A stretch of 21,363 nucleotides of DNA from Mesotaenium endlicherianum (Eukaryota): the NCBI GenBank assembly GCA_009602735.1, contig WELA01003305.1, positions 199,752 through 221,114 of the forward strand, given 5' to 3'. The translations under genes and the position numbers were made by a program. Position 1 is the stretch's first letter. The number at the start of each line of letters is the position of its first letter. Below the pieces are notes generated by a model, which did not search any database, was not told where the DNA came from, and saw only the letters and a program-made list of their open reading frames with translations. This document shows positions 3 to 20,298 of the stretch, piece after piece.

Positions 3-1012
3 TCCAAGTGGATCGAGCTTGTGCCTTTGCCCAGCAAGGCCAGTGAGGGGATCGCTCAGGCCTTCCTTGATCAGGTCCTTAGCCGCTTCGGTGGCTGCGC
101 AGAAGTGCTGACCGACCAGGGCAAGGAGTTCCAGGGCTGCTTCCAGACGCTACTGGAGCGCTCTATGATCGACCACCGCACCACCTCCCGCGATCACCCA
201 CAGGCTGACGGCCTTGCAGAGCGCATGGTGCAGACCGTCAAGCTTGGGTTGTGGAAGTACTGTCTTGCCCACGACAGCACCCACTGGGACGACGCACTCC
301 CGTGGCTGGCCATGGGGTACAGGTTCAGAGAGCAGGCCTCATTGGCCTCGCATTCTCCCTACTTCCTCCTCTACGGCCGCCAGCCAGTCCTACCCGCAGC
401 AGCCAGGATCGTGGCCAAGAACGTCGTGGACTTGGACAGTCCCGAGACGTGGAGCGCTCTTATCGGGCAGCGTGCTCAGCTCTTTCAGCGCCTGATGCCC
501 ATGGCCATGGATAAGCTCGGCATTGCACAGCATCGCAATACGCTAAGGTATGCCATGACTCGTGGAGGAGCCTATCGTCCTCGGGTGTTGCAATTTTCCG
601 CAGGTGACTTTGTGTACCTGCGACGCCAGACGAAGAACACCCTCGACACCAGCAGCTCGCCAGTCGTCCTGCGCGTCAAGCGCGTCTTACCCACAGGTGT
701 GCTGGAGCTGGAAGGCGCAAATGGCCGTCTTCACAAGGACCACACGAAGAACTGTGTGGACCATGCCATCTTCCAAACCTTGACTCGCAGGTCCGTCCCC
801 ACAACGCGCGGCCGCCCAAGGACTGGGCGTGCCAGATCTGCCACAGCCCTGGCCAGGAGGCCAATATGCTGCTCTGCGACAGCTGCAACCTCGGCTTCCA
901 CATCAGCTGCCTCGACCCTCCGCTGGCCCGCGTGCCCGCAGGAGACTGGTTTTGCTATGGCTGCTCTGAGTTGGCCTTAGGCAGCAATCACAGCTCATCA
1001 GCTAGAGGCTGA
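3..1012 (+). pseudogene. Gypsy integrase C-terminal part plus PHD finger, frameshift near 755-760
   Basis: SKWIELVPL, TDQGKEF, HPQADGLAERMVQT (DDE core). After the shift the frame reads PCHLPNLD...CQICHSPGQEANMLLCDSCNLGFHISCLDPPLARVPAGDWFCYGC (C4HC3 PHD, 830-964), with stop TGA at 1010-1012. Confidence 0.9.
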
Positions 1013-1025
1013 GAGCTGGGGGGGG
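1013..1025 (+). promoter_or_regulatory. Putative polypurine tract of element A
   Basis: GAGCTGGGGGGGG directly after the integrase stop and directly before the first repeat copy. Confidence 0.6.
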
Positions 1026-1163
1026 AATTAAAACATTTGACGCTTGACTCCCTTTTTGGCCTATAAAGCCATTTGTATTATAGACTTCATTGCAGCAAAG
1101 CCTGCTTGTCCATTGTGTGTTGCTTATGTCGACAATGCGCGCCCGATCTCTTAACGCACGACA
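1026..1163 (+). repeat. Terminal repeat B1 of element A (138 bp)
   Basis: Direct repeat of 2174-2311 with about 7 mismatches. Starts AATTAAAAC and ends GCACGACA. Confidence 0.92.
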
Positions 1164-1165
1164 GC

Positions 1166-2173
1166 TGTCATGATTTATTGAGTCGAGGTTGTCGCACAAA
1201 GCCGAGCTCCACATGTGTGAACCATCAACCTAGGAAGGCCGACTTTGCATAGACTTTACGCATCCATACGTTGACCTTTTCTCAATTTCCAAGTCATTAA
1301 AGTGTACGCGTCGAGTCACCTTCCGAATGGCACCGGGTTCGCGTCATTTGGTCAAGTATCGAGCGAGATATGAGCGATCTAGTCCGCGTCACCTATCGGC
1401 CCCTAGCGGATCCTCACCAAAGGGCAATTTGTGTTTCAATGTGCCCAAGGGACACATTCTTGCCTATTCGTGACCCCCTAAAACCCCCAGCTTGTGCGCA
1501 CAAATCCGCGAGCTCCTAGAGCACACATACCTTGCATTTCCATAGTATAAGTGCATCATTGAGGCTATAACTAGGTGACTGCATCAACTACGCCTAGAGG
1601 AAGCTTCCTCAAATTTTCGATCTTCGTTTGAGGTGCTATCTAGGTAGAATCACCCAAGGTAAGCTCCACCAATGAGAGACACATAGCATATTCTACATGC
1701 CTTGCTTTGATTGGATTGAGTTATGCTTAGCCTATAGGAGTGCTAGTACATGCCTTGTACACATTAGTGGACATAGAGAGCCTCCTAGAGGGACTAGATG
1801 CATTGGACTCGCCGCAGACCCCGGCGGATTTCCAGGAGTATAAGTACCAGAGATGTCCCTAGAGAGACATCTTTTTAGAAGTCCATTATGCCAGATGTAA
1901 GTAACAGAGATTATCAGTAAAGCTTACACCTTTATCTCTAGTGTGTTTTCAGGACCTCTTAGTTACTCTCTTGTGAAGAGCAAGCCCTCCTGGCTTCCAG
2001 TCACTTGAAGAACTTCACAAGTGGTGAGCAAAATCACAGCTTAAATCCTTGCATGGAACCACTTTTGAAGATCATGATGTGCTTCTAGTGATATTTTGGG
2101 CCATACTTCATTAGTTGTTTTCTTACCAGTTTTACAATTTTGAGGTGCCCACTCTGGAGAGTACACACTCCTT
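1166..2173 (+). repeat. Putative A segment (copy of the element's 5' terminal region) between B1 and B2
   Basis: Starts TGTCATGATTTATTG...TGTCGCAC, resembling the 5' terminus of element B (TGTCGCGACTATTATCC...TGTCGCAC). Non-coding, with TATAAG at 1839 and AGTAAA at 1916. Confidence 0.6.
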
Positions 2174-2311
2174 AATTAAAACATTTGACGCTTGACTCCC
2201 TTTTTGGCCTTTAAAGCCATTTGTATTATAGACTTCATTGCAGCAAAGCCTGCTTGTCTATTGTGTGTTGCTTATGCCAACAATGCGCACGTGATCTCTT
2301 AACGCACGACA
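2174..2311 (+). repeat. Terminal repeat B2 of element A (element 3' end)
   Basis: Direct repeat of 1026-1163. Its final CA abuts the interrupted RT gene. Confidence 0.92.
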
Positions 2312-2469
2312 GTGGTTCTACAAATCTCCTCCTTAGTAAAAGCAAACATCTTGCGGTGTTTCTTCAGCAACCTTTCTACTTGTGCTCTCTGCTGGGCTGA
2401 GACCATTTTTCCAATGGCAAAAGTCTCAGTTTCAGGTTGCTTCTCCCCAGCAAAGGCATCCAGTAGTTG
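2312..2469 (-). pseudogene. N-terminal stub of RT-RH-IN frame, copy 1
   Basis: QLLDAFAGEKQPETETFAIGKMVSAQQRAQVERLLKKHRKMFAFTKEEI, matching the start of the 1010-aa ORF of copy 2. Confidence 0.88.
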
Positions 2470-2472
2470 CTA
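2464..2472 (-). promoter_or_regulatory. Putative stop-codon readthrough signal UAG-CAA-CUA, copy 1
   Basis: In-frame TAG followed by CAACTA (CARYYA consensus). Identical in copy 2. Confidence 0.7.
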
Positions 2473-4323
2473 TTCCTTGGGTGCAGGTTGGGGCTTTTTG
2501 CCCTCATCCTGGCCCTCAGGCTTTTTTGCCTGATTCTGGCTCTCAGGCTTTTCTGCCTGATTCTTAGGAGGTGGGGTAGCAGGCTTTGCAGCTTGCTCCT
2601 CCGTTGCCAAAGGCTTTGCAGCCTGTTTCCTAGGCTTTTTGCCTTTCCTAATGACGCGTCGCCTCTCCTGCGGTGAGGTGTACGTCAGGCGCCTCCGGAT
2701 GGGTTGCCTCAGGAACATTTCCTCGTCGACTGCAGTCCAACTGGTCCCGGTTCCTCCTTCTTCACGTGGCCGAGGTTGGTTTGCCATTGGCCAACTTGCA
2801 AGATCTGTCCTAGGGCTGATTACCCAGCCCCACTCTTGCTCAATATTAGCCATGCGGGCGACGGTCGTGCCATACTCCTCCCTTGCGGGTGGTGTGACCG
2901 TCCATGCCTGCGTCAACGTTTGCGGCCTTTGAGGTGCCGCTAGTTGTGCGAGGAAAACATCATCTGCTGCGGTCAAGCGGCTGATGGTGTTCCCCAGATC
3001 CATCAGTTCCCATTCTGGGATTGCAGGTGTCATGGGAGCAGGTGCCTCCGACCTCTGCATCCTAAGATTTGATAGTTGCAACAAGGGCGTGTTCATGCCT
3101 GGCGGCACACTCATGCCCAGTGCCATTGCCCTGCGGATCAAGCCGTCCTCTCCCTCTCTCTGCAGAATATCCCGCAGAGGTGGAGGAGGTGGGGCTGTGG
3201 TTCCTCGCGGAACGCCCTCTCTCTGAGCCTTCCCCTTATGCTTGAAATATCGCTTTAGCATCCTCCTAAAAGATGCGTTACTCTCATGGGCCACCTACCT
3301 TGGTTTGCTTGCGCGACCCTCGGGCTTACCTTGCGCTGCCTCCACTTTAGCAGTGCAGGCAGTCACCTCCTGCCGTTGTGGCGATCGTGCGGTTGACTTG
3401 GGCTCTGCCACTGGAAGACTGGCAATAGGGGTACTGGATGTTGGTGACCTTAATTCTTCATAAATGTCTGCCGAGCTTGGCCCCATTAGGTGGTCAGCTA
3501 CCCAGTGGTCTGTCCTCAAAACCTGTAAGTCAAGCAGATTCAACTCTGGCGTGGGAAAACGTGGAATTTCTTCCCTGGCTTCCTCTCCATTGATGAGTGA
3601 TGGCAACTCAAACTCTGAGAGGCCTTGCATCTCTGCATCCTCTCCCACCTCCGGCTTCTCTGTTCCAGGAGGCGGCGATTCTTCATCCCCTCCTGTGTTG
3701 AGCCTCGCCATGTTGATGATGGCTGACTGTAGAGCGCGAGCTAATTTCGCCACTTTCTCTTCCTTGAGTCGAGGGGCGTCTGCTTCCAGCAACTGCTCCA
3801 TGATTTGCCTGGTGATCGACTCAGCTGTGCTCCCAACTGTGTCTTGTGGTTGCCCTTTGGCCTCTAGCTCTGGGCTCATCAGAACAAGTGTGGCGGGCAA
3901 TGTCTCGATCGTCTTCTTCCTGCGTTCTTCAAAATCACCTCCGGGCATGGTCTTCCCAGACCCTCCAGAATTTCTTGAATTCTGACTGCATTCTTTGGCC
4001 CATTCGCCAATATTGCACTGCCGTTCTTCATATCTTGATGTTACCGCTTCTGGGGATGGGCTCCCAAAGACCTGGTCTGGGGCCATGTTTCGTAACTCAG
4101 AACTGGTATAATCTTCCCATTCCGGCATCCTCCCAACTACCTGGCTGGAGCGTTTTGCAGATGCTGGGACCTCCTGTGATTTGCTTGCTGCAGCGCTCGC
4201 GAAAGGGTTTGCTTCACCAATTGCCTGGTCTTCCATGGCTACGTCTTCCCGCAGCCTTTGCAACTTTCTTTCCAGAGGGTCGTGTAGAGCCGTCATCCGA
4301 TTGTCAATTTGTGCCAGTAGGTC
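2470..4323 (-). pseudogene. Low-complexity P/E/S/K-rich polyprotein linker of unknown function, copy 1
   Basis: ORFs 3295-4296 and 2470-3294 are in one frame, split by TAG where copy 2 has AAG. They are also in frame with 4324-5154. Confidence 0.75.
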
Positions 4324-5615
4324 TTAACACCTGGTCAGCTCAACCACTCTGGTTTCTCTGAGTGCTTCACCTTGGTCAGCCTCAGCTGCGTCCCTTTCAA
4401 CACCATATTCTTCTTGTTGCTGATGCGCTTCCTTGATAGCTCTCTGATCAGAGATTGGCACCACATGGACTCCAATCGTTACTGGTCTCGGCCTGGGCAT
4501 AGGCTTGTCAAAGATTGTCATCTGCTGCCAAGTCATAATCGTCTCCAGCAACCACGTCATGGAGTGATGCCCAATCATATTGCCGAATATCTTCCCAGCG
4601 TCGTCCTGTCCCACCATCGCAACGATTTCTTGTGCAATGGAGTTGGGTACCCCCAGGCACCTTCCCTTCCCTTCAGCTGTCGGCTCTCTCCACTGAGCTT
4701 CTCTGTCGTGCGCATTCTTCACCATACTTGGTCCTCCATTCACGAATGCGCGTGATCCTGGGTATGCTGTGAAGGTGGGCAGCACCACCTTTGGCAGGCC
4801 TGGCTCGTTGACGACGTACTGTGGGTAGGAATCCCTCCTGATCACTGGCTTGGTTTCCACCAACAGTGCTTCTCCCACAGATACTGCCGTTGGTGTGCGC
4901 CGCGTAATCTCCTCCATCTCCCTCAGGATTTCAATGGACATGCCGTTGGTCCAGAATAGTCTGGCCTGGTGTGAGAGTCCTCCGTGCCTGGCGTCGTTGA
5001 TCAATACATGATGACCCAGGGTGGAGTCAAAGACCAGCCATGGATCTCCTTGCTTCATCTGGTTGTAATTCATCCCTGGATGTACATTCTCAATCACAAA
5101 CACTGGTGGGTAGAGATGCTGGCGTTCCCGCGGCATACCGATGATTTCCACCAACCATCCTCAGTGTTGTGCTCCCCGGGTCATTGAATCCCCTCCTGTT
5201 CCCAGTTTGCGAGAAAGGTTGACAAGGAATCCCGCAAAAAATCCAGTCAATCCTATAACCATACAAGTCCTCAGACTTCACATCGAGAATGTTTCCTCCA
5301 GCAAGACGCACCAAACTAGTAGGCACCAACGCCTTGAAATGGTACATTTGCCGCATCTGACTCTTGACCTCCTTAAATGCTGAAAGCACTCTCATCATTG
5401 TCCACATACAGCACTTTTGGTACCTGGATACCCTGCTGAATCAGTGAGATGGTTCCAGAACCAAGTCCGGCAAACAACTCCAGCACTACTACTCCTCTCC
5501 TGCGAAAAGGATCTTCCATCCTCACAATGCCTTGCGGCAGCGGGTCTACTCCATGCATCAAATTGGCAGTAGACTTAACTGCATAAGGAACTTGGCAGCA
5601 GCTCTTGCGGGCCAC
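4324..5615 (-). pseudogene. C5 cytosine DNA methyltransferase domain, frameshifted, copy 1
   Basis: ELFAGLG (I), GIPCQPFS (IV), IENV (VI), HQARLFW (VIII) and FGNM (X) are spread over three frames. Confidence 0.88.
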
Positions 5616-6657
5616 GGTCCCTGTTACTCACAGCCTCTAGTTGCTCCATAATCCAAGGTTGCCAAACCAAGGGAGTCGGCATGTTGATGCTGGTGTAGAT
5701 CTTCTCTTCGTGTTGCATGATGAGGTCATAATGGTCTGGATACTGGTCATTCACACAGCAGTCTAGCAGTCCGTAGTTTGCTTCTCCTGAGCAAACCATT
5801 TTTACAGGAATTTCTCCTGTCGGCTGCCGATCTGTCGACTGGTAAGTCACCCTCTGCTTCCGCAGGTCGATGACCATACCCAGGGGAATCAGGGCTTCTG
5901 TCCCCAAGAGAACATCATAGTTCTCTGCCTCTGTCACCGTGCATTTTATGGGCAGTGACGCCTCCTCAGGTTTCCCCAAGTTTATTGTGATTTTCACAGG
6001 CTTGCGGGTGATTCCACAAGACTTTAAAATCTGCCCAGATGCAGTCCTCAACTGAAAAGAAATTTCTTTCAGGTCCCTTGCCGTCAATCCCAGAGCTTTC
6101 ACAGCTCGCTTTCCCAAGATTACTGGCTGTGCGCCATTGTCCAATAGGATATTGGGAGCGGCCCAGTTGTTAAACGTCAAAACTCTATCCTTGTTCTGCA
6201 CTCTCACAGTGCTGAAATTAGTAGGCAGCGAAGCGCTGTTCGCGCCTTCCTCAGCATGGTCCAGCTGCTGTCCGGCTTCTTCAACCGTGAAAGGATACGT
6301 AAGACGCAGATCAACGAGTGAAAGACAAGGAATATGCTGAATCCGGTGTTCCACCAGAGCCTTCAGCTTCTCCAGCGAAAAACTAAATGTCTTGCGTGGC
6401 TCAGGCTTGGCTTGTCGTAGCTGCGCAATCTCGTTCTCATCGAGAGTGATCCAAAAGGTCTGAGGAAGCTTCTCAGCATTCCTTGGAACCAGACGGTCAT
6501 GATCTGCGCGCTCCGCAGCCGTTGCAGCCACGGCCTTCTCAGACGTCAGCTTCTCACCTTTGCAGACGGTCTTTTCGGCCACATCTGCATCATAATAGAC
6601 ATTAGGCACATTTAGTCTTGCAAATTGAGCTTTCAACTCTGCAATCTCTGCACTCAT
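5575..6657 (-). pseudogene. Retropepsin aspartic protease region, copy 1
   Basis: ILLDNGAQ (DTG in copy 2) and DVLLGTEAL. Confidence 0.85.
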
Positions 6658-8299
6658 AGCATCATACTTCTGGTTACCCTTTGGGTTACCAAATTTATCT
6701 TTTCCTTTTTCTTACCCTTATCTGCCTCTTTCGTGGCAGCATTAGCCCATGGTGGCTTCAGATTTGGGTTCTTGGACCAACACTCATCTTCTGAGTGTCC
6801 CTTTTTGCTGCAATGTGCGCATACCTGCGCCTTGCTAGCAGACAATTGCTTAGCATCCGGGTACGGACAATCTCTCTTTTGATGTCCCGATTTCCCGCAA
6901 TTCCAAGAGCCCTCTTCTGTCTCAGCAGTGTTGGCGTGCTTAGCAAACCTATTGAAAGACCCGCTCTTTTTCTTAAACTGAAAATTAGAGCTATTGGCCT
7001 TAGGCTGAAAGGATTCCTCCTTTCTCTCAGGAGCCATAAGCGTCCTGGAAGCCTCCTTGTACCAGACTTTACCTTCCTCGACATTGCGTGCTATTTCAGC
7101 AGACTCGTTGATGTTCCAATCGATTCCGCGTTTTGCAGATAGGTGCGGCCTGACCTCCCGATCTGTGTCTTTACCCAAACACAATAAGAATTTGTCAGCC
7201 ACAATCCTAGGCTCATAGATTCCTGCCTTCTTGGCAAGGTCTACCAATTTGGATTTGACCTCCATCACTGTCTCGTTCTTCTGACGGACAAAATGCACAT
7301 AGCGGTGCACCTTAAGACTGCGATCCTCTGGGAATTTTGCTTCAAGCAACTTAAAGAAACGACGCAGACAGTGCTCAGAGTCTAACTGGTCATCCCCAGC
7401 CTCCATATCCCTACGGCAACTAGCCAATGCTTGCGCATGGCTTGCTTTNCGCATGGCTTGCTTCGTGGTGGCACTATCACCATGCTACCCTGTAAAAGGT
7501 GCAGCCCTACGTGTTACTTATTCGTGAGCATTAGCAATCTTTTCAGACAATTCTGCACACACTTTACGCAATTCTGCGACAGACCCAGCATCATCATCTC
7601 GAGTAGCCGCTCGCTGCTGACCCTCGGTGAGTTGCTTCATGGCATCTGTTAATTCTTGTGTTAGTGCAGCTAAGTCTATGCTCTCAACAGGTGCAGCAGG
7701 TATCGCTCTTCCTGATGACAAAGCGGACAGGCGGGCTTTCGCAGCCTCTTTCTGAATTTTAATATCCCTCGCCTTCTTTTGCTCGTCAAACGCCCATTCC
7801 TGGGTAAGGTTCTCATCCTTCTGGAATTGGCCATAAAGCAACAAGGCATCCTTGTCCAAGTACTGAACCAAGCTTATAAAGCGAAAGACTGAGTGTAAGA
7901 AGAATCCTTTTGGATTCTCTCAAAGAAGTCAGCCCAATAGATCTCATCAAACTCTTCGAAAGTGAGACTATTTCCACCGGTTCGTCCACTAAAACACTTT
8001 GTAGACAGCTTGAACTTAGGATTTTCATCCTTATCATCACCAGTCATTTCGAACGGTGACCAAGACTCACTATCTTTACCCCACACGTCGTGCTCTCTGC
8101 CCAAATTGGGTACAAAGGCTTGCGCGTTATACGGATTCTCACCGTTCGTGGCAGTATGGCAAGACTCGTCTCCGGACGGTTGCTCACTCCACAGGTTATC
8201 CGTGCGCTCTGATGTCTCACTTCCTCGTGGACTCTGGCTTGAATCAGAACCTTCCGCAGGCTCCACAGGGTAGTAGAGTCTTCCACTCCTCAACCGCAT
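6654..8299 (-). pseudogene. gag: Gag with zinc knuckles, frameshifted, copy 1
   Basis: MRLRSGRLY start and CAHCSKKGHSEDEC knuckle. The first knuckle has C-to-S. The frame is broken near 7875, 7518 and 7449. Confidence 0.82.
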
Positions 8300-8908
8300 G
8301 TACAGTTGAATTTCTCCGGATCCCCTTCCAGGTTGAGCACCGGCAGCCCTCACAGGCCTCAATCCCCAATTTGCTTGGGAATTTCTATTCACCTGAATTA
8401 CAGAACCGAGGTTCTCAGAAGTAGGATGGAAGTCTCTTACTTCCACATAGGCTTTATGCCTTAAGGTTCTTGGGTTCACAGGCGAGCAAATTGTAGTTTG
8501 CAAAACACTCTAAGCAGCTTGACATACAACGTCAGATTCAGAGAAAATCGCCCTTCAGGCTTTCGCTTAACTTTCACAAAGTCACAGCTTACAAAACTCT
8601 GAAACTACACGTCTATGCTGGCCTGGGTCAAGCTCTTCACTTAACACCGCGCCTTAACAGTTCTTCACTGCCAGGCTAGGCTCACTCATTTCTTCACTGA
8701 GAGCCTTATCTGCCAATACTACCCTCTCTCTTCGAGATGCGAATGCGACTTCTAAGAACCTGGAAACTAACACACAACTCATCATTTTAAGGCTGCTTCA
8801 CACACACTTGTGGCGTTCGGCCAAATCTGTGCTAATCTCCTAGCAGATTCTATTCTGCAGTTTTCCTACTTTCAACAGTGAGATTCCCTTTTGGGAACTC
8901 CTACAATC

Positions 8909-9127
8909 CTAACTTATCTTCGATACACTAAGAAGAATCTTCAGCGTCGGCAGAAGCGTGGGGCCTCGGCTCTCCAATGGCCTTGGGAACTCCTTCTTCT
9001 TCTTCGCGCCCTTCTTCTCCTTCCTTCTGCTCTTTCTGCTCCTTCTGCTTCTTGGCAAAAGTGCGTGAGAGTGAATAACATGTCTCAGGCAAGATTCGTG
9101 CCTTCCGCAGGCACCACACAGCGTCAT
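8909..9127 (-). CDS. Possible small Cys/His- and Lys/Arg-rich upstream ORF, copy 1
   Basis: ATG start, CGACGRHESCLRH, basic tract. The frame is open in both copies. Confidence 0.25.
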   Translation of the reverse strand: MTLCGACGRHESCLRHVIHSHALLPRSRRSRKSRRKEKKGAKKKKEFPRPLESRGPTLLPTLKILLSVSKIS

Positions 9128-9723
9128 CTTTCGAGAATGGCGTGCTTAGTCACAAAGCTTAGCTTCATGTCGCTTCTTCCTAGCCATGCTCAACTCAAAC
9201 TCGTAGTCACTCGGCATGCATGCACACCTCGTGACTGTCGCTTCTCAGCTGGCAGTCACGCCTAATTGGCTCGTGGCTAAGAACTCCTGAGCGGCGTGTA
9301 CAAGCAAATGCCCCTTGCTCAAGATTCCCAACCGGGCGGCCGTAACCTATCTTGGCATTGCGGCCATGACCTGGCTTAATCTGCCAGTCACACAGTATCT
9401 GACTTGGTACCTGCTGGGCAACTCATCACTGATCCCCAACTTCTAGCCTCGCGGCTGTCTATGATGTCAAAACCTCCCCCATCCCTGGGTGTGGGGCACA
9501 TTGACATTGACCCCTTGCCAGTGGTCTTGACGCCGACATAACCACTGACTGCGACGTAATCAGTCAAGTGGTCGGTGAGTCAACGTTGACTTTCCGAACC
9601 TGGATGGCCGTAGCTTGCGCTGCGTGTGCGGCACCGTCAAACGGATAGTAGTCGCGACACCAATTCTATACCGTAGTATATACCTACCTCTATTATATTC
9701 TACCACATTAATTAATATATCTC

Positions 9724-9727
9724 ATCA
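9724..9727. repeat. 4-bp target site duplication ATCA (left)
   Basis: ATCA|TGTCGTG at 9724-9734 and CGCGACA|ATCA at 20288-20298. Confidence 0.75.
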
Positions 9728-10023
9728 TGTCGTGCCTAACAGTGTCGGTCCCTCGGCACGTGCGTAGCCTTCCAGCACGTGTGCCTTCGGCCTGGTTGAT
9801 GTGTCGGTGGCCCTCCTGACGTGTGGCAGACATGGTCGATCGACCTTTGCACGTGTGTTGGTGACAAGCCTTACCAGGGTTAACCCATCCCTGGGTTCCT
9901 GAACTTGCACCATGCAGCCTTGACCAACACTCAGGGTGACGTTCTCTGTCACCCGGCTCTCACCATCTGCTTATCCTAAGACTTTAGCAGAAAATTTTAA
10001 AAAATACTTGCCTTGCCTTAATT

Positions 10024-10044
10024 CCTCTTACACCCTTCCCTTTC
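10024..10044 (-). promoter_or_regulatory. Putative polypurine tract of element B
   Basis: Minus strand GAAAGGGAAGGGTGTAAGAGG, overlapping the integrase stop and followed by AATTAA as in element A. Confidence 0.6.
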
Positions 10045-13000
10045 AGCTGAGGCGTCCCTGCCTTTCCTGCTGAAAGCTATTATTTTCCAGCCCTGCGGCT
10101 AGGGGTTTAGGAAGGCAATCAGGACATTCCCATCGTCCTGCCATAATTTCTTCCTCGCCAATGCAGAAAGTGTGCCAACGGGCACCACACTCGTCGCAAG
10201 TTACCATTGCTTCCTGATCGTCCAGCACTTTGCACCTGGCACAAGGCGTGGCCGGCACCAATTCCTCGGGCACCACCCTAACTGTGGGATCAATATTCGG
10301 CAAATGGCATAGCGAGCAATTCTGCACGTGGTCTCTCATGGTTTTACCATCAAAACCTTCCAGTTCTAACACACCATTGTCAAACGCATGTTTCACGCGC
10401 AAGATCACTGCACCTGAACTGGTGTCGATGGTGGTCTTGGTCTGGCGCTTGCGGTAGACAAAGTCTCCTTCTTGTATCCGCGTCATCTGCAGGCGGTAGC
10501 TCCCGTCTCGCGTCCTAGCGTAACGTTGCGTATCTCTTTTCTGTGCAATTTTCAGATTGACTAGTGCAGCCGGTATCATGCGTTCAAATAACGCCTTACG
10601 GCGCACCATCACTTTTAACAGTTCATCAGGGCTGTCCAGGTCTTTCACCTGTTCAATCTCCTGCTTGATGCTGCTGGGCACTACTGGACTTCTGCCAAAC
10701 AGTATCTGATATGGCGAGTAATTTGCCAAGGCAGCCTGCTTGCTAAATCTGTAACCCATAACCAGCCATGGCAGGGCTAGATCCCAGTCACGCTTGTCAT
10801 GCTCAAGGCAAAACTTGCGCAAAGCAGACTTAATGGTTTGCACCATCCTTTCTGCCAGACCATCTGCTTGCGGATGATCTCTAGACGTAGTGCGATGATC
10901 GATGAAGCATCTGTCCAAGAGTTTCTGAAAAGACCCTTGGAACTCAGACCCTTGGTCTGTCAGCACTTCTGCTGGAGCTCCATGACGCACAATCACACCA
11001 TTGAGGAATGCTTCCGCGGTCCCTAGGCTTTCCTTAGCAGTCAGAGGGACAACCTCTATCCACTTAGAGAAATGCTCAATCATGACCATGATATACTTGT
11101 TACCTTGCTTAGACAGCGGTAGCTCACCTGCGAGATCGCAGCTCCAACGGTAACCTAGGCCCATGATTGGCAAATGTTGCAAGTGTAGGTGTTGCTGCGT
11201 AAAACCAGCCTTGACGCGATCACAGCTTTGGCAAGCCTTGATCACATCTTCACACTGCTGCTTCATGCCCCTCCACCAGTAAGACAGCTCCAAAAGACTA
11301 TATGTCTTCTTGACACCATAGTGTCCAGTGTTCTTGTGCATTTCTTGCACAAGGGCTCGTCCTTTGATGGGTTCTGGCACTAACTTCTCCTGACCAGTTT
11401 CTTCAATTCTGAAGAGGTTGTTGCATTTCCAGCAAAACCTTTTAGCTCGATGGTTTACCTGGTCCTTCTCCTTCACTGATAGTCCTTCCAAGTGAGTTCC
11501 CGTCTTAAGCCAGTGCATAGTAGCTTGATCTTTCCAGATCTCTGTACTGAACAGGGGTAGAGGCTCAGCTTCACCTGATGCTACTATTCCAGCCATTTCG
11601 GCTAGGCAAGCCACCAACTCTGCTGGGCTGCTCGGGTCTTCGTCCTCTCGAGCTCCTGTTCTGTCGTCTGAAGATGGGTCTGGGTTCCTGCTGAGTCCAT
11701 CGGCGTCGTTGTTGAGCACTCCTGCTCTGTGCACCACCGTCATTTGGTACTCTTGCAGCTTAAGAGCCCAGCGAGCCAACTTACCAGTGAGGTCTCCATT
11801 CTTCATCAGCCATAGTAATGGTGAGTGATCCGTGATCAGTGTGAAGGGTCTTCCCCACAGATACTCTCTGAAGTGTGTGACCGCCCAAACCACTGCCAGC
11901 AGCTCTCCTTCATAGGACGAGTAGTTGCTCTCCGCTCGATTGTTAGAGCGTGAGGCATAGGCAATGACATACTCCTCTCTAGGGCTTGTGGCCTGAGTGA
12001 GTACTGCGCCAATTCCCACACGACTCCAGTCAGTGTGCATATTGAACGGTTTGGAGTAGTCAGGCGTTCGCAAGACTGGGGCTGTTACCAGCCGCTTCTT
12101 AAGCTCGTTCATGGCTTTCTCCTGAGCTTCTGTCCACACAAAAGGTACATCCTTTTTCAGGAGTTCCGTAAAGGGTTTAGCAATTCTGCTATAATCCTTC
12201 ACAAACTTACGATAGTATCCGCTTAGCCCTAACAGAGCTTTCAGCTTAGACACATTCGCAGGTGCAGGTATCTTGTAAATAGCCTCAGTCTTCACAGCCT
12301 GAGGGGACATAGCATTGTTCCCAATCTCATGTCCTAGGTAAGGCACGTGTGCCTCAAAGATTTTGCACTTCCCAGGATGCAGCTTCATCTGGAATTTCTC
12401 CAGGCGCTGGAACACTTGTTCCAAGTGCTCGAGGTGCTCCTCTATGGACTTGCTGAATACTACCACATCGTCTATGTATGGCTTAGCGAAATCCAGCCCC
12501 TCTAGCACTTTATCCATAGTCCTCTGAAATATGGCTGGGGCATTTTTCAGCCCAAATGGCATTACTGTCCATTGCCAAAGTTCCCTTTGAGCCCAAAAAG
12601 CAGTTTTACCTCGATCTTCTGTTTTCACAAGGATCTGGTTGAAGCCTTGGCGCAGATCGATAATGCTGAACACCTTTCCGGTGGTGGCAATTACAAAGAT
12701 CCGTTCCGGCGTAGGCATCACATAGCTATCCGGCTCCGTGTAGAGATTCAGTCGCCTGTAATCTCCACACATACGAGTGGCAGTGTAATTGCCGGCCTCG
12801 TCCTTTTTAGTGACTACTATTGTAGGAGCTCCATGTATTGAGGTAGATTTTTCAATCATGCGGAGCTTATGCAGCTCTTCACAAGTGTTCTCCACACAGT
12901 CCCATTCTGTCTGACTGAGCTTATGCGGCCCTAGTCTGATTGGGTTATCAGTAGTTAGTGTGATCTCACACGCACTGGCAGTGGTTCCACCAATCTCCTC

Positions 13001-13138
13001 CTTAGTGAAAGCAAATACCTTGCGGTGTTTCTTCAGCAACCTTTCTACTTGTGCTCTCTGCTGGGCTGAGACCATTTTCCCAATGGCAAAAGTCTCAATT
13101 TCAGGTTGCTTCTCCCCAACAAAGGCATCCAGTAGTTG
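10043..13138 (-). CDS. pol: Pol: reverse transcriptase - RNase H - DDE integrase - PHD finger (open frame)
   Basis: RT: CGDYRRLN, IDLRQGFNQI, MPFGLKNAP, YIDD (about 12467-12478). RNase H: TDWS, YEGELLA, TDH, DADGLSR. Integrase: H-H-C-C, CDLAG, TDQGSEF, AERM. PHD C4HC3 at 10115-10243. First ATG at 13075, but the frame is open from 13138. Confidence 0.96.
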   Translation of the reverse strand, partial: QLLDAFVGEKQPEIETFAIGKMVSAQQRAQVERLLKKHRKVFAFTKEEIGGTTASACEITLTTDNPIRLGPHKLSQTEWDCVENTCEELHKLRMIEKSTSIHGAPTIVVTKKDEAGNYTATRMCGDYRRLNLYTEPDSYVMPTPERIFVIATTGKVFSIIDLRQGFNQILVKTEDRGKTAFWAQRELWQWTVMPFGLKNAPAIFQRTMDKVLEGLDFAKPYIDDVVVFSKSIEEHLEHLEQVFQRLEKFQMKLHPGKCKIFEAHVPYLGHEIGNNAMSPQAVKTEAIYKIPAPANVSKLKALLGLSGYYRKFVKDYSRIAKPFTELLKKDVPFVWTEAQEKAMNELKKRLVTAPVLRTPDYSKPFNMHTDWSRVGIGAVLTQATSPREEYVIAYASRSNNRAESNYSSYEGELLAVVWAVTHFREYLWGRPFTLITDHSPLLWLMKNGDLTGKLARWALKLQEYQMTVVHRAGVLNNDADGLSRNPDPSSDDRTGAREDEDPSSPAELVACLAEMAGIVASGEAEPLPLFSTEIWKDQATMHWLKTGTHLEGLSVKEKDQVNHRAKRFCWKCNNLFRIEETGQEKLVPEPIKGRALVQEMHKNTGHYGVKKTYSLLELSYWWRGMKQQCEDVIKACQSCDRVKAGFTQQHLHLQHLPIMGLGYRWSCDLAGELPLSKQGNKYIMVMIEHFSKWIEVVPLTAKESLGTAEAFLNGVIVRHGAPAEVLTDQGSEFQGSFQKLLDRCFIDHRTTSRDHPQADGLAERMVQTIKSALRKFCLEHDKRDWDLALPWLVMGYRFSKQAALANYSPYQILFGRSPVVPSSIKQEIEQVKDLDSPDELLKVMVRRKALFERMIPAALVNLKIAQKRDTQRYARTRDGSYRLQMTRIQEGDFVYRKRQTKTTIDTSSGAVILRVKHAFDNGVLELEGFDGKTMRDHVQNCSLCHLPNIDPTVRVVPEELVPATPCARCKVLDDQEAMVTCDECGARWHTFCIGEEEIMAGRWECPDCLPKPLAAGLENNSFQQERQGRLS

Positions 13139-13141
13139 CTA
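13133..13141 (-). promoter_or_regulatory. Putative stop-codon readthrough signal UAG-CAA-CUA, copy 2
   Basis: TAG at 13139-13141 is in frame with pol, 21 codons before the ATG at 13075, in CARYYA context. Confidence 0.7.
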
Positions 13142-15040
13142 CTCCTTAGGTGCAGGTGGGGGCTTCCCGCCCTCATCCTGGCCCTCATGCTTTTCTGCCT
13201 GATTCTGGCTCTCAGGCTTTTCTGCCTGATTCTTAGAAGGTGGGGTAGCAGGCTTTGCAGCTTGCTCCTCCGTTGCCATAAGTTCGGCAGCCTGTTTCTT
13301 AGGCTTTTTACCTTTTCCAATGACGCGTCGCCCCTTGCGGTGAGGGGTATGTCAGGCGCCTCCGGATGGGCTGCCTCAGGAACATTTCCTCGTCGATTGC
13401 AGTCCAACTGGTCCCGGTTCCTCCTTCTTTACGTGGCCGAGGTTGGGTAGCCATTGGAAAACCTGCGGGGTCTGTCCTAGGGCTGATCGCCCAGCCCCAT
13501 TCTCGCTCAATAATAGCCATGCGGGCGACGGTCGTGTTATACTCCTCCCTTGCGGGTGGTGTGACCATCCATGCCTGCGCCAATGTTTGCGGCCTTTGAG
13601 GTGTTGCTAGTCGTGCGAGAAAGGCATCATCTGCTGCGGTCAAGCGGCTGATGGTGTTTCTCTGATCCATCAGTTCCCATCCTGGGATTGCAGGTATTAT
13701 GGGAGCAGGCTCCTTCGACCTCTGTATCCTAAGATCTGATAGTTGCAACAAGGGCGTGTTCATGCTTGGCGGCACACCAATGCCCAATGCCATTGCCCTG
13801 CGAACCAAACCGTCCTCTCCCTCTCTCTGCAGAATATCCCGCAGGGGCGGAGGAGGTGGGGCTGTGGTTCCTCGCGGAACGCCCTTTCTTTGAGCCTTCC
13901 CTTTATGTTTGAAATATCGCTTTAGCATCCTCCTAAAAGATGCGTTACCCTCACGAGCCTCCTTCCTTGGTCTGCTTACGCGACTTTCGGGCTTTCCTCG
14001 TGCTGTCTCCACTTTAGCAGTGCAGGCAGTCACCTCCTGCTGTTGCGGCGATTGTGCGGCTGACTTGGGTTCTGCCACTGGAAGACTGGCAGAAGGAGAA
14101 CTGGATGTTGGCGACCTTAATTCTTCATAAAGGTCTGCTGGGCTTGGCCCCATCAGGTGGTCAGCCACCCAGTCGTCTGTCCTCAGCTCCTGTAAGTCAA
14201 GCAGATCCAACTCTGGCGTGGGAAAACGTGGAATTTCTTCCCTAATGTCCCCTTCATTGTTGAGTGATGGCAACTCCAACTCCGAGAGGCCTTGCATCTC
14301 TGCATCCTCTTCCTCCTCCGGCTTCTCTATTCCAGGAGGCGACAATTCTTCATCCCCTCCTGTGTTGAGCCTCGCCATGTTGATGATAGCTGACTGTAGA
14401 GCGAGAGCTGCTTTTGCCACTTTTTCGAGGGGCGTCTGCTTCCAGCAACTGCGCCATGATTTGCCTGGTGATTGACTCAGCTGTGCTGCCAACTGTGTCT
14501 TGTGGTTGCCCTTTGGCCTCTGGCCCTGGGCTCATCCGAGCAAGTGTGGCGGGCAATCTCTTGGCCGCCTCCTTCTTGTGTTCTTCAAAAATCACCTCCA
14601 GGCAAATGGTCATTCTAGACCCTCCAGAATTTCCTGAATTTTGACTGCATTCTTCGGCCCATTTGCCAATATTGCACTGGCGTTCTTCATATCTTGATGT
14701 TACCGCTTTTGGGGATGGGCTCCCGGAGACCTGGTCTGGGGCCATGTTTCGTAACTCAGAACTGGTATAATCTTCCCATTTCGGCATCCTCCCAACTACC
14801 TGGCTGGAGCGTTCTGCAGATGCTGGGACCTCCTGTGATTTGCTTACTGCAACGCTCACCAAAGGGTTTGCTGCACCAGTTGCCTGGTCTTCCATGGTTA
14901 CATCTTCTCGCAGCCTCCGCAACTCTCTTTCTAGAGGGTCGTGTAGAGCCGCCATCCGAGTGTTAATTCACGTCAATATGTCTTGACACCTGGTCAGTCC
15001 CACCACTCTGGCTTCTCTGAGTGTTTCCTCTTAGTCAACC
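13139..15040 (-). pseudogene. Low-complexity linker region, copy 2 (frameshifts and stops)
   Basis: Homologous to 2470-4380. Indels near 13333, 14425 and 15050, and stops near 14968 and 15031. Confidence 0.75.
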
Positions 15041-17752
15041 TCAGCTGCGTCTTTCAACAGCATATTCTTTTTGTCGCTGATACGCTTCCCTCATAGCTCT
15101 CTGATCAGAGGTTGGCACCACATGAACTCCAATCGCTACCGGCCTCGGCCTGGGCATAGGCTTGTCAGAGAACGTCATCTGTTGCCAAGTTATAATCGTC
15201 TCTACCAACCATGTCATGGACTGATGCCCAATCATATTGCCGAACATCTTCCCAGCGTTGTCCTGTCCCACCTTTGCAACAATTTCTTGTGCAATGGAGC
15301 TGGGTACCCCCAGGCACCTTCCCTTCTCTTCAGCTGTCGGCTCTCTCCACTGAGCTTCTCTGTTGTGCACATCTTTGACCATTCCTGGCCCTCCATTCAC
15401 GAAAGCGCGTGATCCTGGGTATGCTGTGAAGGTGGGCAACACCATTCTCGGCCGGCCTGGCTTGTTGACGACGTACTGTGGGTAGGAATCCCTCCTGATC
15501 ACTGGCTTGGTTTCCACCAACAGTGCTTCTCCCACAGATACTGCCGTTGGTGTGCGCCGCGTAATCTCCTCCATCTCCCTCAGGATTTCAATGGACATGC
15601 CGTTGGTCCAAAATAGTCTGGCCCGGTGTGAGAGTCCTCCGTGCCTGGCGTCGTTGATTAATACATGATGACCCAAGGTGGAGTCGAAGACCAGCCATGG
15701 ATCTCCTGGCTTCATGTGGCTGTAATCCATCCCTGGATGTACATTCTCAATCACAAACACTGGTGGGTAGAGATGCTGGCGTTCCCGCAGCATAATGATG
15801 ATCTTCACCATCCTTCCCCAGTGTTGTGCTCGCGGGTCATTGAATCCCCTCCTGTTCCCAGCTTGCGAGAAAGGTTGACAAGGGAATCCCGCAAAAATCC
15901 AGTCAATCCTGTAATCATACAGGTCGTCAGACTTCACATCGAGAATGTTTCCTCCAGCAAGACGCACAACACTAGTGGGCACAAATGCCTTGAAATGGTA
16001 CATTTGCCGCATCTGACTCATGGCCTCCTCAAATGCTGTAATAACATTCTCATCATTGTCCACATACAGCACTTTGGATACTCGGATACCTCGCTGAATC
16101 AGTGTGATGGTTCCAGTACCAAGTCCGGCGAACAATTCCAGCACTACTATTCCTCTCCTGCGAAAAGGATCTTCCATCCTCACAATGCCTTGCGGCAATG
16201 GGTCTACTCCAGGCATCAAATTGGCAGCAGTCTTAACAGGATAAGGAACTGGCAGCAGCTCTTGCGGGCCACGGTCCCTGTTACTCACAGCCTCTAGTTG
16301 CTCCATAATCCAAGGTTGCCAAACCAAGGGAGTCGGCATGTTGATGCTGGTGTAGATCTTCTCTTCGTGTTGCATGATGAGGTCATGATGGTCTGGATAC
16401 TGGTCATTCACACAGCAGTCTAGCAATCCGTAGTTTGCTTCTCCTGAGCAAACCATTTTTACAGGAATTTCTCCTGTTGGCTGCCGATCTGTCGACTGGT
16501 AAGTCACCCTCTGCTTCCGCAGGTCGATGACCATACCTTGGGGAATCAGAGCTTCTGTCCCCAATAGAACATCATAGTTTCCTGCCTCTGTCACCGTACA
16601 GTCTATGAACAGTGACGCCTCCTCAGGTTTCCCCAAGTTTACTGTGATTTCCACAGGCTTGCGGGTGATTCCACAAGACTTTGAAATCTGCCCAGATGCA
16701 CTCCTCAACTGGAAAGGACTTTCTTTCAAGTCCCTGGCCGTCAATCCCAGAGCTTTCACAGCTCGCTTTCCCAAGATTACTGGCTGTGCGCCAGTGTCCA
16801 ATAGGATATTGGGAGCGGCCCAGTTGTTAAACGTCAAAATTCTATCCTTGTTCTGCACTCTCACAGTGCTGAAATTAGTAGGCAGCGAAGCGCTGTTCGC
16901 GCCTTCCTCAGTTAGGTCCAGCTGCTGTCCGGCTTCCTCAATCGTGAAAGGATATGTAAGACGCAGATCAGCGAGTGAAAGACAAGGAATGTGCTGAATC
17001 CGGTGTTCCACCAGAGCTTTCAGCTTTTCCAGCGAAAGACTAAATGTGTTGCGTGGCCCAGGCTTGGCTTGTCGTAGCTGCGCAATCTCGTGCTCATCGA
17101 GAGTGATCCAAAAGGTCTGAGGAAGCTTCCCAGCATTCCTTGGAACCAGACGGTCATGATCTGCGCGCTCCGCAGCCGTTGCAGCCACGACCTTCTCAGG
17201 CGTCAGCTTTTCGCCTTTGCAGACGGTCTTTTCGGCCACATCTGCATCATAATAGACATTAGGCACATTTAGTCTTGCAAATTGAGCTTTCAATTCTGCA
17301 ATCTCTGCACTTATAGCATCATACTTCTGATTACCCTTCCGGTTACCAGAGTTATCTTTCTCCTTTTTCTTAGCCTTATCTGCCTCTTTCGTGGCAGCAT
17401 TAGCCCATGGTGGTTTCAGATTTGGGTTCTTGGACCAACACTCATCTTCTGAGTGTCCCTTTTTACTGCAATGTGCGCATACCTGCGCCTTGCTAGCAGA
17501 CAATTGCTTAGCATCCGGGTACGGACAATCTCTCTTCTCATGTCCTGATTTCTCGCAGTTCCAACAGCCCTCTGCTGTCTCAGCAGTGTTGGCGTGCTTA
17601 GCAAACCTATTGAAAGACCCGCTCTTTTTCTTAAACAGAAAGTTAGAGCTATTGGCCTTGGGCTGAAAGGATTCCTCCCTTCTCTCAGGAGCCATAAGCG
17701 TCCTAGAAGCCTCCTTGTACCAGACTTTACCTTCCTCGACATTGCGTGCTAT
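15041..17752 (-). CDS. Polyprotein segment: two CCHC knuckles, aspartic protease, C5 cytosine methyltransferase (about 15200-16150)
   Basis: CWNCEKSGHEKRDC, CAHCSKKGHSEDEC; LLDTGAQ; ELFAGLG (I), AGFPCQPFSQAG (IV), IENV (VI), HRARLFW (VIII), RCLGVP (IX), FGNM (X). Confidence 0.93.
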   Translation of the reverse strand: MARNVEEGKVWYKEASRTLMAPERREESFQPKANSSNFLFKKKSGSFNRFAKHANTAETAEGCWNCEKSGHEKRDCPYPDAKQLSASKAQVCAHCSKKGHSEDECWSKNPNLKPPWANAATKEADKAKKKEKDNSGNRKGNQKYDAISAEIAELKAQFARLNVPNVYYDADVAEKTVCKGEKLTPEKVVAATAAERADHDRLVPRNAGKLPQTFWITLDEHEIAQLRQAKPGPRNTFSLSLEKLKALVEHRIQHIPCLSLADLRLTYPFTIEEAGQQLDLTEEGANSASLPTNFSTVRVQNKDRILTFNNWAAPNILLDTGAQPVILGKRAVKALGLTARDLKESPFQLRSASGQISKSCGITRKPVEITVNLGKPEEASLFIDCTVTEAGNYDVLLGTEALIPQGMVIDLRKQRVTYQSTDRQPTGEIPVKMVCSGEANYGLLDCCVNDQYPDHHDLIMQHEEKIYTSINMPTPLVWQPWIMEQLEAVSNRDRGPQELLPVPYPVKTAANLMPGVDPLPQGIVRMEDPFRRRGIVVLELFAGLGTGTITLIQRGIRVSKVLYVDNDENVITAFEEAMSQMRQMYHFKAFVPTSVVRLAGGNILDVKSDDLYDYRIDWIFAGFPCQPFSQAGNRRGFNDPRAQHWGRMVKIIIMLRERQHLYPPVFVIENVHPGMDYSHMKPGDPWLVFDSTLGHHVLINDARHGGLSHRARLFWTNGMSIEILREMEEITRRTPTAVSVGEALLVETKPVIRRDSYPQYVVNKPGRPRMVLPTFTAYPGSRAFVNGGPGMVKDVHNREAQWREPTAEEKGRCLGVPSSIAQEIVAKVGQDNAGKMFGNMIGHQSMTWLVETIITWQQMTFSDKPMPRPRPVAIGVHVVPTSDQRAMREAYQRQKEYAVERRS

Positions 17753-18943
17753 TTAAGCAGCCTCGTCGATGTTCCAGTCGATTCCGCGTTTCGCAAATAG
17801 GTGCGGCCTGACCTCCCGATCTGTATCTTTACCCACACACAATAAGAATTTGTCAGCCACAATCCTAGGCTCATAGATTCCCGCCTTCTTGGCAAGGTCT
17901 ACCAATCTAGATTTGACCTCCATCACTGTCTCGTTCTTTTGACGGACAAAATGCACATAGCGGTGCACTTTAAGACTGCGATCCTCTGGGAATGTTGCTT
18001 CAAGCAATTTAAAGAAACGACGCAGACAGTGCTCAGAGTCTAACTGGTCATCCCCAGCCTCCATATCCCTACGGCAAATAGCCAATGCTTGCGCATGGCT
18101 TGCTTCCGTGGTGACACTATCACCATGCTGCCCTGTAAAAGGTGCAGCTCTGCGTGTTACTCGTTCCTGGGCATTAGCAATCTTTTCAGACAATTCTGCA
18201 CACACTTTACGCAATTCTGCGACAGACCCAGCATCATCATCTCGAGTAGCCGCTCGCTGCTGACCCTCGGTGAGTTGCTTCATGGCATCTGTTAATTCTT
18301 GTGTTAGTGCAGCTAAGTCTACGCTCTCAACAGGTGCAGCAGGTATCGCTCTTCCTGATGACAAAGCGGACAGGCGGGCTTTCGCAGCCTCTTTCTGGAT
18401 TTTCAAATCTCTCGCCTTCTTTTGCTCGTCAAACGCCCATTCCTGGGTAAGGTTCTCATCCTTCCGAAATTGGCGATACAGCAACAAGGCATCCTTGTCC
18501 AAGTACTGAACCAAGCTTATAAAAGCGACTGACTGAGTGTAAGAAGAATCCTTTCGGATTTTCTCAAAGAAGTCAGCCCAATAGATCTCATCAAACTCTT
18601 CGAAAGTGAGACTATTTCCACTGGTTCGTCCACTAAAACACTTTGTAGACAGCTTGAACTTAGGATTTTCATCCTTATCATCACCAGTCATTTCGAGTGG
18701 TGACCAAGACTCACTATCTTTATCCCACACGTCGTGCTCTCTGCCCGAATTGGGTACAAAAGCTCGCGCGTAATACGGATTCTCACCGTTCGTGGCAGTA
18801 TGGCGAGACTCGTCTCTCGACGGTTGCTCACTCCACAGGTTATCCGTATGCTCAGATGTCTCACTTTCTCGTGGACTCTGGCTTGAATCAGAACCTTCCG
18901 CAGGCTCCACAGGGTAGTAGAGTCTTCCACTCCTCAACTGCAT
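17753..18943 (-). pseudogene. gag: Gag N-terminal/capsid region, copy 2, cut from the downstream ORF by one nonsense codon
   Basis: First ATG at 18943 (MQLRSGRLY). TAA at 17753-17755 corresponds to GAA in copy 1, and the frame is the same as 15041-17695. Confidence 0.82.
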
Positions 18944-19546
18944 GTACAGTTGAATTTCTCCGGGTCCCCTTCCAGGTTGAGCACCGGTAGCCCTCACAGG
19001 CCTCAATCCCCAATTTGCTTGGGAATTTCTATTCACCTGAACCACAGAACCCAGGTTCTCAGAAGTAGGACGGAAGTCTCTTACTTCCACATAGGCTTTA
19101 TGCCTTAAGGTTCTTGGGTTCACAGGTGAGCAAATTGTAGTTTGCAGAAATCACACTCTAAGCAGCTTGACATGCAACGTCAAATTCAGAGAAAATCGCC
19201 CTTCAGGCTTTTGCTTAACTTCCACAAGTCAGCTTACAAAACTCTGAAACTACGTCTATGCTGGCCTGGGTGAAGCTCTTCACTTAACACCGCGCCCTAA
19301 CAGCTCTTCACTGCCAGGCTGGGCTCACTCAGTTTTTCACTGAGAGCTTTATCTGTCAATACTACTCTCTCTCTTCGAGATGCGAATGCGACTGCCGAGA
19401 ACCTGGAAATCAACACACTACTCACCATTTTAAGGCTCCTTCACACACACACACTTGTGGCGTTCGGCTGACTCTGTGCTAATCTCCTAGCAGATTCTAT
19501 TCTGCACTTCTCCTTCTTCAACCGTGAGATTCCCTCTTGGGAACTC

Positions 19547-19753
19547 CTACAATCCTAACTTATCTCTGATACACAGAAGAATCTTCAGCGTTGTCAGAAG
19601 CGTGGGGCTTTGGCCCTCCAATGGCCTTGGGAACTCCTTCTTCTTCTTCGCGCCCTTCTTCTCTTTCCTTTTGCCTCTTGGCAAAGGTGCGTGAGAGTGA
19701 ATGACATGTCTCAGGCAAGATTCGTGCCTTTCGCAGGCACCACACAGCATCAT
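19547..19753 (-). CDS. Possible small Cys/His- and Lys-rich upstream ORF, copy 2
   Basis: MMLCGACERHESCLRH...KRKEKKGAKKKKE, homologous to 8909-9127. Confidence 0.25.
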   Translation of the reverse strand: MMLCGACERHESCLRHVIHSHAPLPRGKRKEKKGAKKKKEFPRPLEGQSPTLLTTLKILLCIRDKLGL

Positions 19754-20294
19754 CTTTCGAGAATGCCGTGCTTAGTCACACAAGTTAGCTGCATGTCGCT
19801 TCTGCCTAGCCATGCTCAACCCAAACTTGTAGTCATTCAGCATGCATGCACACCTTGTGACTGTCGCGCGTGACTGCTTAGCTTCTCAGCTGGCAGTCAC
19901 GCCTAATTGGCTCATGGCTAAGGATTCCTGAGCGGCGTGCAAGCAAATGCCACCTGCTCAAGTTTTCCCAACCGGGCGGCCGTAACCTATCTTGGCATTG
20001 CAGCCATGACCTGGCTTAATCTGCCAGTCACACAGTACCTGACCTGGTACTTGCTGGGCGGCTCATTGCTGATCCCCAGCTCCTAGCCTCGCGGCTGTCT
20101 TGTCAAAACCTCCCCCATCCTTGGGTGTGGGGCACACTGACATTGACCCCTTGCCAGTGGTCTTGACGCCGCCATAACCGCTGACTGCGATGTAATCAGT
20201 CAAGTGGTCGGTGAGTCAAGGTCGACTTTCAGCACTAGGTGGCCGTAGCTTGCGCTGCGCGTGCGACACCGTCAAACGGATAATAGTCGCGACA

Positions 20295-20298
20295 ATCA
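20295..20298. repeat. 4-bp target site duplication ATCA (right)
   Basis: Matches 9724-9727. Confidence 0.75.

Follow-up and report, generated by a model that had tools for sequence, protein, structure and literature searches.

Split direct repeats at the end of a DDE-integrase Gypsy lineage: a probable self-primed cycle with an internal integrase attachment site

Element A, a Ty3/Gypsy element with a DDE integrase from Mesotaenium endlicherianum, ends in split direct repeats, in which a 138-bp unit (B1) follows the purine tract (PPT) and recurs (B2) behind a 1008-bp segment (A2), and this is the normal end of its family and no one-off duplication. The terminus is lineage-wide and does not mark a tyrosine-recombinase element. 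We consider it probable, with real room for doubt, that element A is inserted in the form A1-ORFs-PPT-B1-GC-A2-B2, that its cDNA is self-primed and that its integrase cuts an internal CA-GC-TG palindrome. The layout is known once before; new here are a candidate self-primer where A1 meets the leader and a fixed palindrome inside the repeat that is predicted to serve integrase attachment.

The terminus of element A and its neighbours

All coordinates are positions in the window, i.e., the whole stretch of 21,363 nt of contig WELA01003305.1 that was analysed. Element A enters at its left edge, with the 5' end outside, and is followed by two copies of a related element, B. The features of element A are the following:

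3-980 (+), C-terminal half of the DDE integrase core (Pfam rve, E 8.7e-7; motif positions)
608-1012 (+), C-terminal PHD finger of the integrase, in a frame different from that of the core (Pfam PHD, E 1.1e-12)
1013-1025 (+), PPT, a purine tract ending in a run of eight G, predicted plus-strand primer (from the sequence)
1026-1163 (+), B1 repeat, ending in CACGACA, predicted start of the reverse-transcription LTR (repeat comparison)
1160-1169 (no strand), palindromic junction GACA-GC-TGTC, predicted internal integrase attachment site (spacer and motif recurrence in relatives)
1166-2173 (+), A2 repeat, starting with TGTCATG, copy of the element's 5' end (loose ends in runs X5 and X21; fork in run X1)
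1839-1844 (+), TATA-like box of putative function, 30 bases ahead of the predicted transcript start (from the sequence)
1869-1881 (+), predicted start of the RNA and predicted self-primer (reverse complement, without mismatch, of leader bases 1-13 in other copies)
2174-2311 (+), B2 repeat, right end of element A, with the A2/B2 joint at 2173/2174 (mixed flanks in runs X5, X11 and X22)

From 5' to 3', the right end thus reads integrase-PHD, PPT, B1 (138 bp), GC, A2 (1008 bp) and B2, and the coordinates first given for the 138-bp units, the GC and the segment opening with TGTC hold on re-comparison. The two B units are identical at 131 of 138 positions, with seven differing sites. The GC lies at 1164-1165, A2 opens at 1166, B2 closes with CACGACA at 2311 and the sequence from 2312 on is that of element B copy 1; around the B1/A2 border, the palindrome at 1160-1169 is perfect. 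The copy is defective, with integrase core and PHD finger in different frames, and the stop codon of the PHD-bearing frame ends at 1012. The rve match stays under the curated Pfam cut-off because the domain is cut by the window edge; the second D and the E are 35 residues apart (D38 and E73 of the frame), and the first D falls outside the window. A2 had been likened to the 5' end of element B, which is right for about its first 40 bases (0.75% and 1.8% of control positions score equally) and wrong for the full 1008 bp, where 46 and 31 of 100 shuffles score as well against the 5' region of element B.

The stretch 1166-2311 was also considered as an independent insertion; this was rejected, since its flanks, CAGC and GTGG, form no duplication. 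The end of B2 (2291-2312) is similar to 12960-12981, where element B copy 2 retains the sequence as it was before the insertion: for the last 21 bases of B2 that stretch is the best match of 38,060 positions, and in the equivalent comparison of the B1 end it stands at 15 of 38,060 (three lengths tried). Two bases in the B2 end deviate from most copies of the family yet match the element B target. The right junction of element A may therefore have been made by homology, or carry a heteroduplex patch, rather than being a clean insertion, and the GTGG duplication predicted for the 5' end of element A is accordingly uncertain.

The features of element B are the following:

2312-9659 (-), element B copy 1, 5' part, starting with TGTCGCGAC at 9659 (91.8% identical to copy 2 over 7.4 kb)
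9724-9727 (-), right target duplication of copy 2, TGAT (4 bp)
9728-20294 (-), element B copy 2, a full-length related Gypsy element of the form A-ORFs-B (domain search and self-comparison)
20295-20298 (-), left target duplication of copy 2, TGAT (4 bp)

Copy 1 is broken off at the start of pol, at its border with element A, and a 68-bp AT-rich target (9660-9727) separates the two head-to-tail copies. Copy 2 contains gag, protease, a C5 DNA methyltransferase, unknown ORFs, RT, RNase H, integrase (catalytic residues D669, D728 and E763) and a PHD finger, and ends in TGTCG...CGACA. Its integrase core is 59% identical to that of element A, and both elements have GGAATTAA behind the PPT and GCACGACA at the terminus. 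The 3' segment of element B has no copy in the 5' region of either element B copy, and copy 2 is an A-ORFs-B element without an LTR pair. The scanned ORFs of element B gave no Pfam match to a tyrosine recombinase (E up to 0.01). As self-primers, element B offered candidates of just 8-10 bp, which were rejected as being at chance level (84 of 200 shuffles reach 10 bp). The C5 cytosine methyltransferase domain lies behind the protease at 15041-17752 (-) (Pfam E 5e-17); it stands ahead of RT in element B and in the related locus L005 described below, and several of the homologues listed carry it too. Between methyltransferase and RT, both element B copies have long ORFs with no Pfam match (13308-14967 and 2470-4323, both on the minus strand), and in many loci of the L005 family this gap is just about 300 bases.

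A layout shared by family A and its relatives

Other copies of family A were taken from public sequencing runs (here numbered with X), which were aligned to the window and whose contigs or reads were then compared. The family is highly repeated, with 4390 contigs of X1 and 3126 of X3 aligning to the window (the two runs represent one sample). Ahead of 1166 the sequence is mixed in four contigs of X5 (agreement 0.56) and in seven reads of X21 (0.73), which indicates that copies of the family begin at this position; in one contig each of X1 and X3, 1166 is joined to position 499 of the opposite strand. Eleven contigs of X1 depart from A at 2174 into one common leader that is not B (agreement 0.8; region 2060-2330), a fork found in X1 only among the best-supported loose ends listed, and after 2311 the sequence is mixed in X5, X11 and X22 (agreement 0.59-0.68). 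The original prediction was that the 5' end would be a copy of 1166-2173 without the 138-bp unit, and this is exactly what other copies of family A show. The refuting alternative named at the time, a full 1166-2311 LTR at the 5' end, did not appear, as A runs to the leader at 2174 and 11 distinct full-length relatives have A1 without B. Depth ratios of A, B and the ORFs in the runs were too noisy for use, and the RNA reads aligned to the window, few in number and none of them 99% alike, show no start pile-up.

Searched with the integrase-PHD region, 203 of 7994 scored proteins matched at E up to 1e-20, and the 120 matches listed include three named proteins, from Klebsormidium, Haematococcus and Volvox. 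In a scan of metagenomes, the best 80 of 490 related stretches were kept as loci; they come from few metagenomes and from short-read assemblies, and the full-length examples represent one related family. This family, typified by L005, comprises 52 of the 80 loci and is 55-61% identical to element A in the integrase core (eight loci compared). A G-rich tract stands ahead of B1 here too. Among its 37 distinct right ends, 21 show B-A-B, one shows A-B and 15 show B only; among its 15 distinct two-ended loci, 11 have the full order A1-ORFs-PPT-B1-A2-B2, one has the same order with B1 deleted and three have A-ORFs-B. Together with the forks in family A, the 11 full-length relatives bear out the proposal that a Gypsy lineage with a DDE integrase uses the A1-ORFs-B1-A2-B2 architecture.

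The ends of the L005 family are the heptamers of the window, TGTCATG and CACGACA, with some decay. At the 11 full elements, a 4-bp target duplication is recognized by 36 matching bases among 44 in the flanks, five loci being perfect; the match at 2, 3, 5 and 6 bp is 18-35%, and none of 20,000 shuffled pairings reached 36. The A-ORFs-B loci are less uniform, with three of four bases matching in L064, one of four (no duplication) in L035 and a damaged left end in L063. L005 itself has rve, PHD and methyltransferase matches, and the 12 ORFs of this full-length copy yielded no Pfam match to a tyrosine recombinase at E up to 0.01.

Outside this family there are 28 loci, 11 of them with at least 600 bases behind pol. 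Six of the latter (L001, L002, L006, L013, L014 and L076) carry GACA-GC-TGTC or a one-base variant, and in the other five the motif is absent or doubtful. L014 likewise shows B-A-B. The order in L002, L006, L013 and L076 is pol-B-GC-A-primer site-leader, which is that of a 1-LTR circle; these loci may be collapsed assemblies, tandem copies or circles. Viral contigs contributed one distant locus. A quick tree, built without a canonical outgroup and not fixing the positions of A and B within it, unites A, B, the split-repeat loci and the Klebsormidium nitens protein P0001 in one group of 31 rows (SH-aLRT 99), with six rows outside, the Volvox and Haematococcus proteins among them.

Putative signals for priming and for cutting

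In X1, the leader behind A opens with 13 bases that match the reverse complement of 1869-1881 at every position, a fit that a given 13-mer would show by chance with a probability of about 1.5e-5. In the L005 family, an arm situated about 32 bases after a TATA box pairs with the A1/leader border at 13 of 17 A1 loci, over up to 15-16 bp, and the stem closes the predicted fold of the RNA 5' end (z -3.44, with borders chosen by the analyst). The loci L002, L006, L013 and L076 have perfect arms of 14-16 bp, 188-250 bases apart and of quite different sequences, each pair beating 200 of 200 dinucleotide shuffles; no such pairing was found in L014, and L001 is too short to show one. The two complementary arms covary across families. 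No leader examined opens with TGG; pairing is instead seen between leader and A. Self-priming of the Tf1 type is recognized by a primer site that pairs with the 5' end of the RNA (PMC4600332, PMC6317226), and the complementarity between the leader and the predicted transcript start in A likely reflects priming of this kind.

The two repeat junctions behave very differently. At the B1/A2 border the spacer is 2 bp in 33 of 33 loci of the L005 family, its bases being GC (12), AC (11), GT (7), AT (2) and AA (1), so that 32 are GC or its transition derivatives. Of 21 distinct loci, in contrast, 11 have a blunt A2/B2 joint; two lack one base there, six lack two and one lacks about 149, and one locus is ambiguous. 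The scars at 9 of the 21 joints would fit end-joining, and later AT slippage may also account for the loss of two bases. The palindromes of the L005 family decay through G-to-A and C-to-T changes at CAG/CTG sites, which would be expected from CHG methylation of the plant type.

Among the relatives, B2 differs from the B1 of its own element by a distance of 0.074 and from the B of other elements by 0.102-0.106, without clustering of B2 with B2, and the A repeats differ by 0.115 within an element and by 0.167-0.169 between elements; the closest B comes from the same element in just 8 of 20 cases. Loci ending in B only and in B-A-B did not differ in a test of age (0.114 and 0.106, p 0.29), a comparison that is uninformative about the origin of the former.

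A model of the cycle and its alternatives

Because the PPT marks the start of plus-strand DNA, at B, and the primer site the start of minus-strand DNA, at the end of A, the functional LTR of reverse transcription is likely B-GC-A, with the integrase cut lying within it. In the cycle that we propose on the basis of these signals, the RNA would begin inside A1, cross B1-GC and run into A2. As in Tf1, its first 12-14 bases would serve as the primer of minus-strand synthesis where A1 meets the leader, and plus-strand DNA would be primed by the PPT at the start of B, giving a linear cDNA of the form [B-GC-A]-ORFs-PPT-[B-GC-A]. Integrase would then act on the left repeat, nicking each strand of its palindrome after CA; the resulting pair of CA-3'OH ends, each with a 5' overhang of two bases, would be what such an enzyme normally uses, and the fixed 2-bp spacer would follow from the geometry needed for these staggered nicks. 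End-joining, either preceding or following strand transfer, would connect the true ends of the cDNA (the end of A and the start of B), so that the A2/B2 joint would be made anew in every cycle. The inserted form would be a permutation of the cDNA, opened at CA-GC-TG in the left repeat and with the end of A joined to the start of B. The fixed spacer, the variable A2/B2 joint and the proximity of B2 to its own B1 all fit this cycle.

The mirror form A-B-GC-A-ORFs-B is not seen at any of the 15 distinct two-ended loci, as compared with 11 split forms. The left junction might be favoured because it would become double-stranded at a much earlier stage than the right one, which is a post-hoc reading of these same counts. 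Copies of the form A-ORFs-B, such as element B copy 2, could have arisen by way of 1-LTR circles, by cutting at both junctions or by recombination between B1 and B2.

The missing mirror forms are directly accounted for by a different route, which we regard as unlikely while giving it more weight than any other alternative: the RNA would read through B2, and strand transfers of unknown nature would lead to a linear A-ORFs-B-GC-A-B cDNA that is used by integrase in the conventional way, with the internal palindrome being a by-product or a transfer signal. The inserted ends and the 4-bp duplications are indeed typical of an ordinary integrase. However, minus-strand synthesis primed at the A1/leader border would be unable to copy B2, and on this route one would not expect B2 to follow the B1 of its own element rather than other B2 copies, the A2/B2 joint to vary while the palindrome spacer is fixed, or the palindrome to be kept across families with unrelated repeats.

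The scars at 9 of 21 A2/B2 joints are also explained if the linear cDNA is closed into a 2-LTR circle, the joint being the circle junction, and if integrase opens either internal CA-GC-TG junction at random, for which foamy virus integrase provides a precedent (PMC1180852). Such a symmetric scheme predicts equal numbers of mirror and split forms, and with 0 against 11 among the 15 loci (0.5^11, about 0.0005, calculated by hand) we hold it to be improbable; a circle in which one of the junctions is preferred belongs to the cycle proposed here and not to this symmetric alternative. Far less probable again is the integration of circles by a tyrosine recombinase acting in trans, as in PAT or Ngaro, whose repeat layout is the same (PMC4157794), since full-length copies have no recombinase match, the DD35E spacing is intact and the elements have TG...CA ends and 4-bp duplications of varied sequence. 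Least probable of all is an ordinary LTR at 1166-2311 with a one-off 138-bp terminal duplication, a nested solo LTR or an assembly error, which is suggested by the textbook TG...CA appearance of this stretch in a copy spanned by no long reads. Against it stand the unduplicated flanks (CAGC and GTGG) and the seven sites that differ between B1 and B2, and as an explanation for the family it is refuted by the 5' copies of A that continue into the leader without B and by the recurrence of the layout at 21 distinct right ends of the L005 family and in L014.

Relation to known elements and significance

A group of this kind was at first tentatively taken to be undescribed; it had in fact been noted already, in the legend of Fig. 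4c of PMC5890265, for KnitGypsy-Dnmt3 of Klebsormidium nitens, which combines DIRS-type repeats (A-coding-B-A-B) with Gypsy domains (de Mendoza et al., 2018, PMC5890265). KnitGypsy-Dnmt3 and family A share A-ORFs-B-A-B repeats on a Gypsy domain set; as to the C5 methyltransferase, it is present here in element B and L005, and the window does not extend to the part of element A in question. The passages of that paper on KnitGypsy-Dnmt3 concern a single algal family and do not deal with ends, target duplication, priming, junction or mechanism. The top named integrase-PHD match is the K. nitens protein P0001, 57% identical to the element A integrase core, a likeness that does not establish a link to KnitGypsy-Dnmt3. 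In the literature searched, with subscription journals, Repbase and Dfam beyond reach, the name KnitGypsy does not occur outside the 2018 paper, and no other paper found there names a Gypsy group with split repeats or a mechanism of this kind, nor did the priming and cutting signals turn up, although the supplementary figures of PMC5890265 may hold more.

With canonical Ty3/Gypsy elements the lineage shares the order protease-RT-RNase H-integrase (seen in element B and L005, element A showing the integrase end only), the DD35E integrase, the PPT, the TG...CA ends and the 4-bp duplication, the last being seen in the relatives and in element B copy 2. It differs from them in having no pair of full LTRs, the 5' ends bearing A alone, and in that B rather than a TG end comes after the PPT, with the inserted ends lying inside the unit from PPT to primer site. 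As in Tf1/sushi and plant Tcn1, the primer site is complementary to the predicted RNA 5' end, apparently in place of a tRNA (PMC4600332, PMC6317226); those are LTR elements, mostly with chromodomains, whereas the lineage of family A has a PHD finger and permuted repeats. The A1-ORFs-B1-A2-B2 split direct repeats are those of PAT, TOC1, Kangaroo, Ngaro and VIPER (PMC4157794), which encode a tyrosine recombinase, in contrast to the DDE integrase and the integrase-type ends and duplications found here. Foamy virus integrase cleaves the palindromic LTR junction of 2-LTR circles (PMC1180852), and the enzyme of family A would likewise be a DDE enzyme opening a palindromic CA-spacer-TG junction to processed ends. 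The foamy virus junction is formed from cDNA ends, whereas the one considered here would lie inside the repeat and be inherited through the RNA.

Retroviral-type integrases are taken to act on linear cDNA ends, and a comparable opening of a palindromic junction by a DDE enzyme is known from the circle junctions of the IS3 family. Whether joined LTR junctions are true integrase substrates has long been argued for foamy virus and HIV, and the present elements appear to form a natural lineage that depends on an LTR junction, with sequence signals precise enough for testing. Search tools that rely on paired LTRs would miss these high-copy elements, some of them with a DNA methyltransferase, or set their boundaries wrongly. 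On a wider scale, we lean slightly towards the view that in a broad green-lineage Gypsy clade the integrase attachment site has shifted away from the cDNA ends and into an LTR-internal palindrome, each insertion being a circularly permuted self-primed cDNA. If true, a retroviral-type integrase would here be obliged to work through an internal junction, and the clade would provide a possible link from LTR elements to the split-repeat elements with a tyrosine recombinase, with a working model of how the split repeats of the latter may have arisen from ordinary LTRs.
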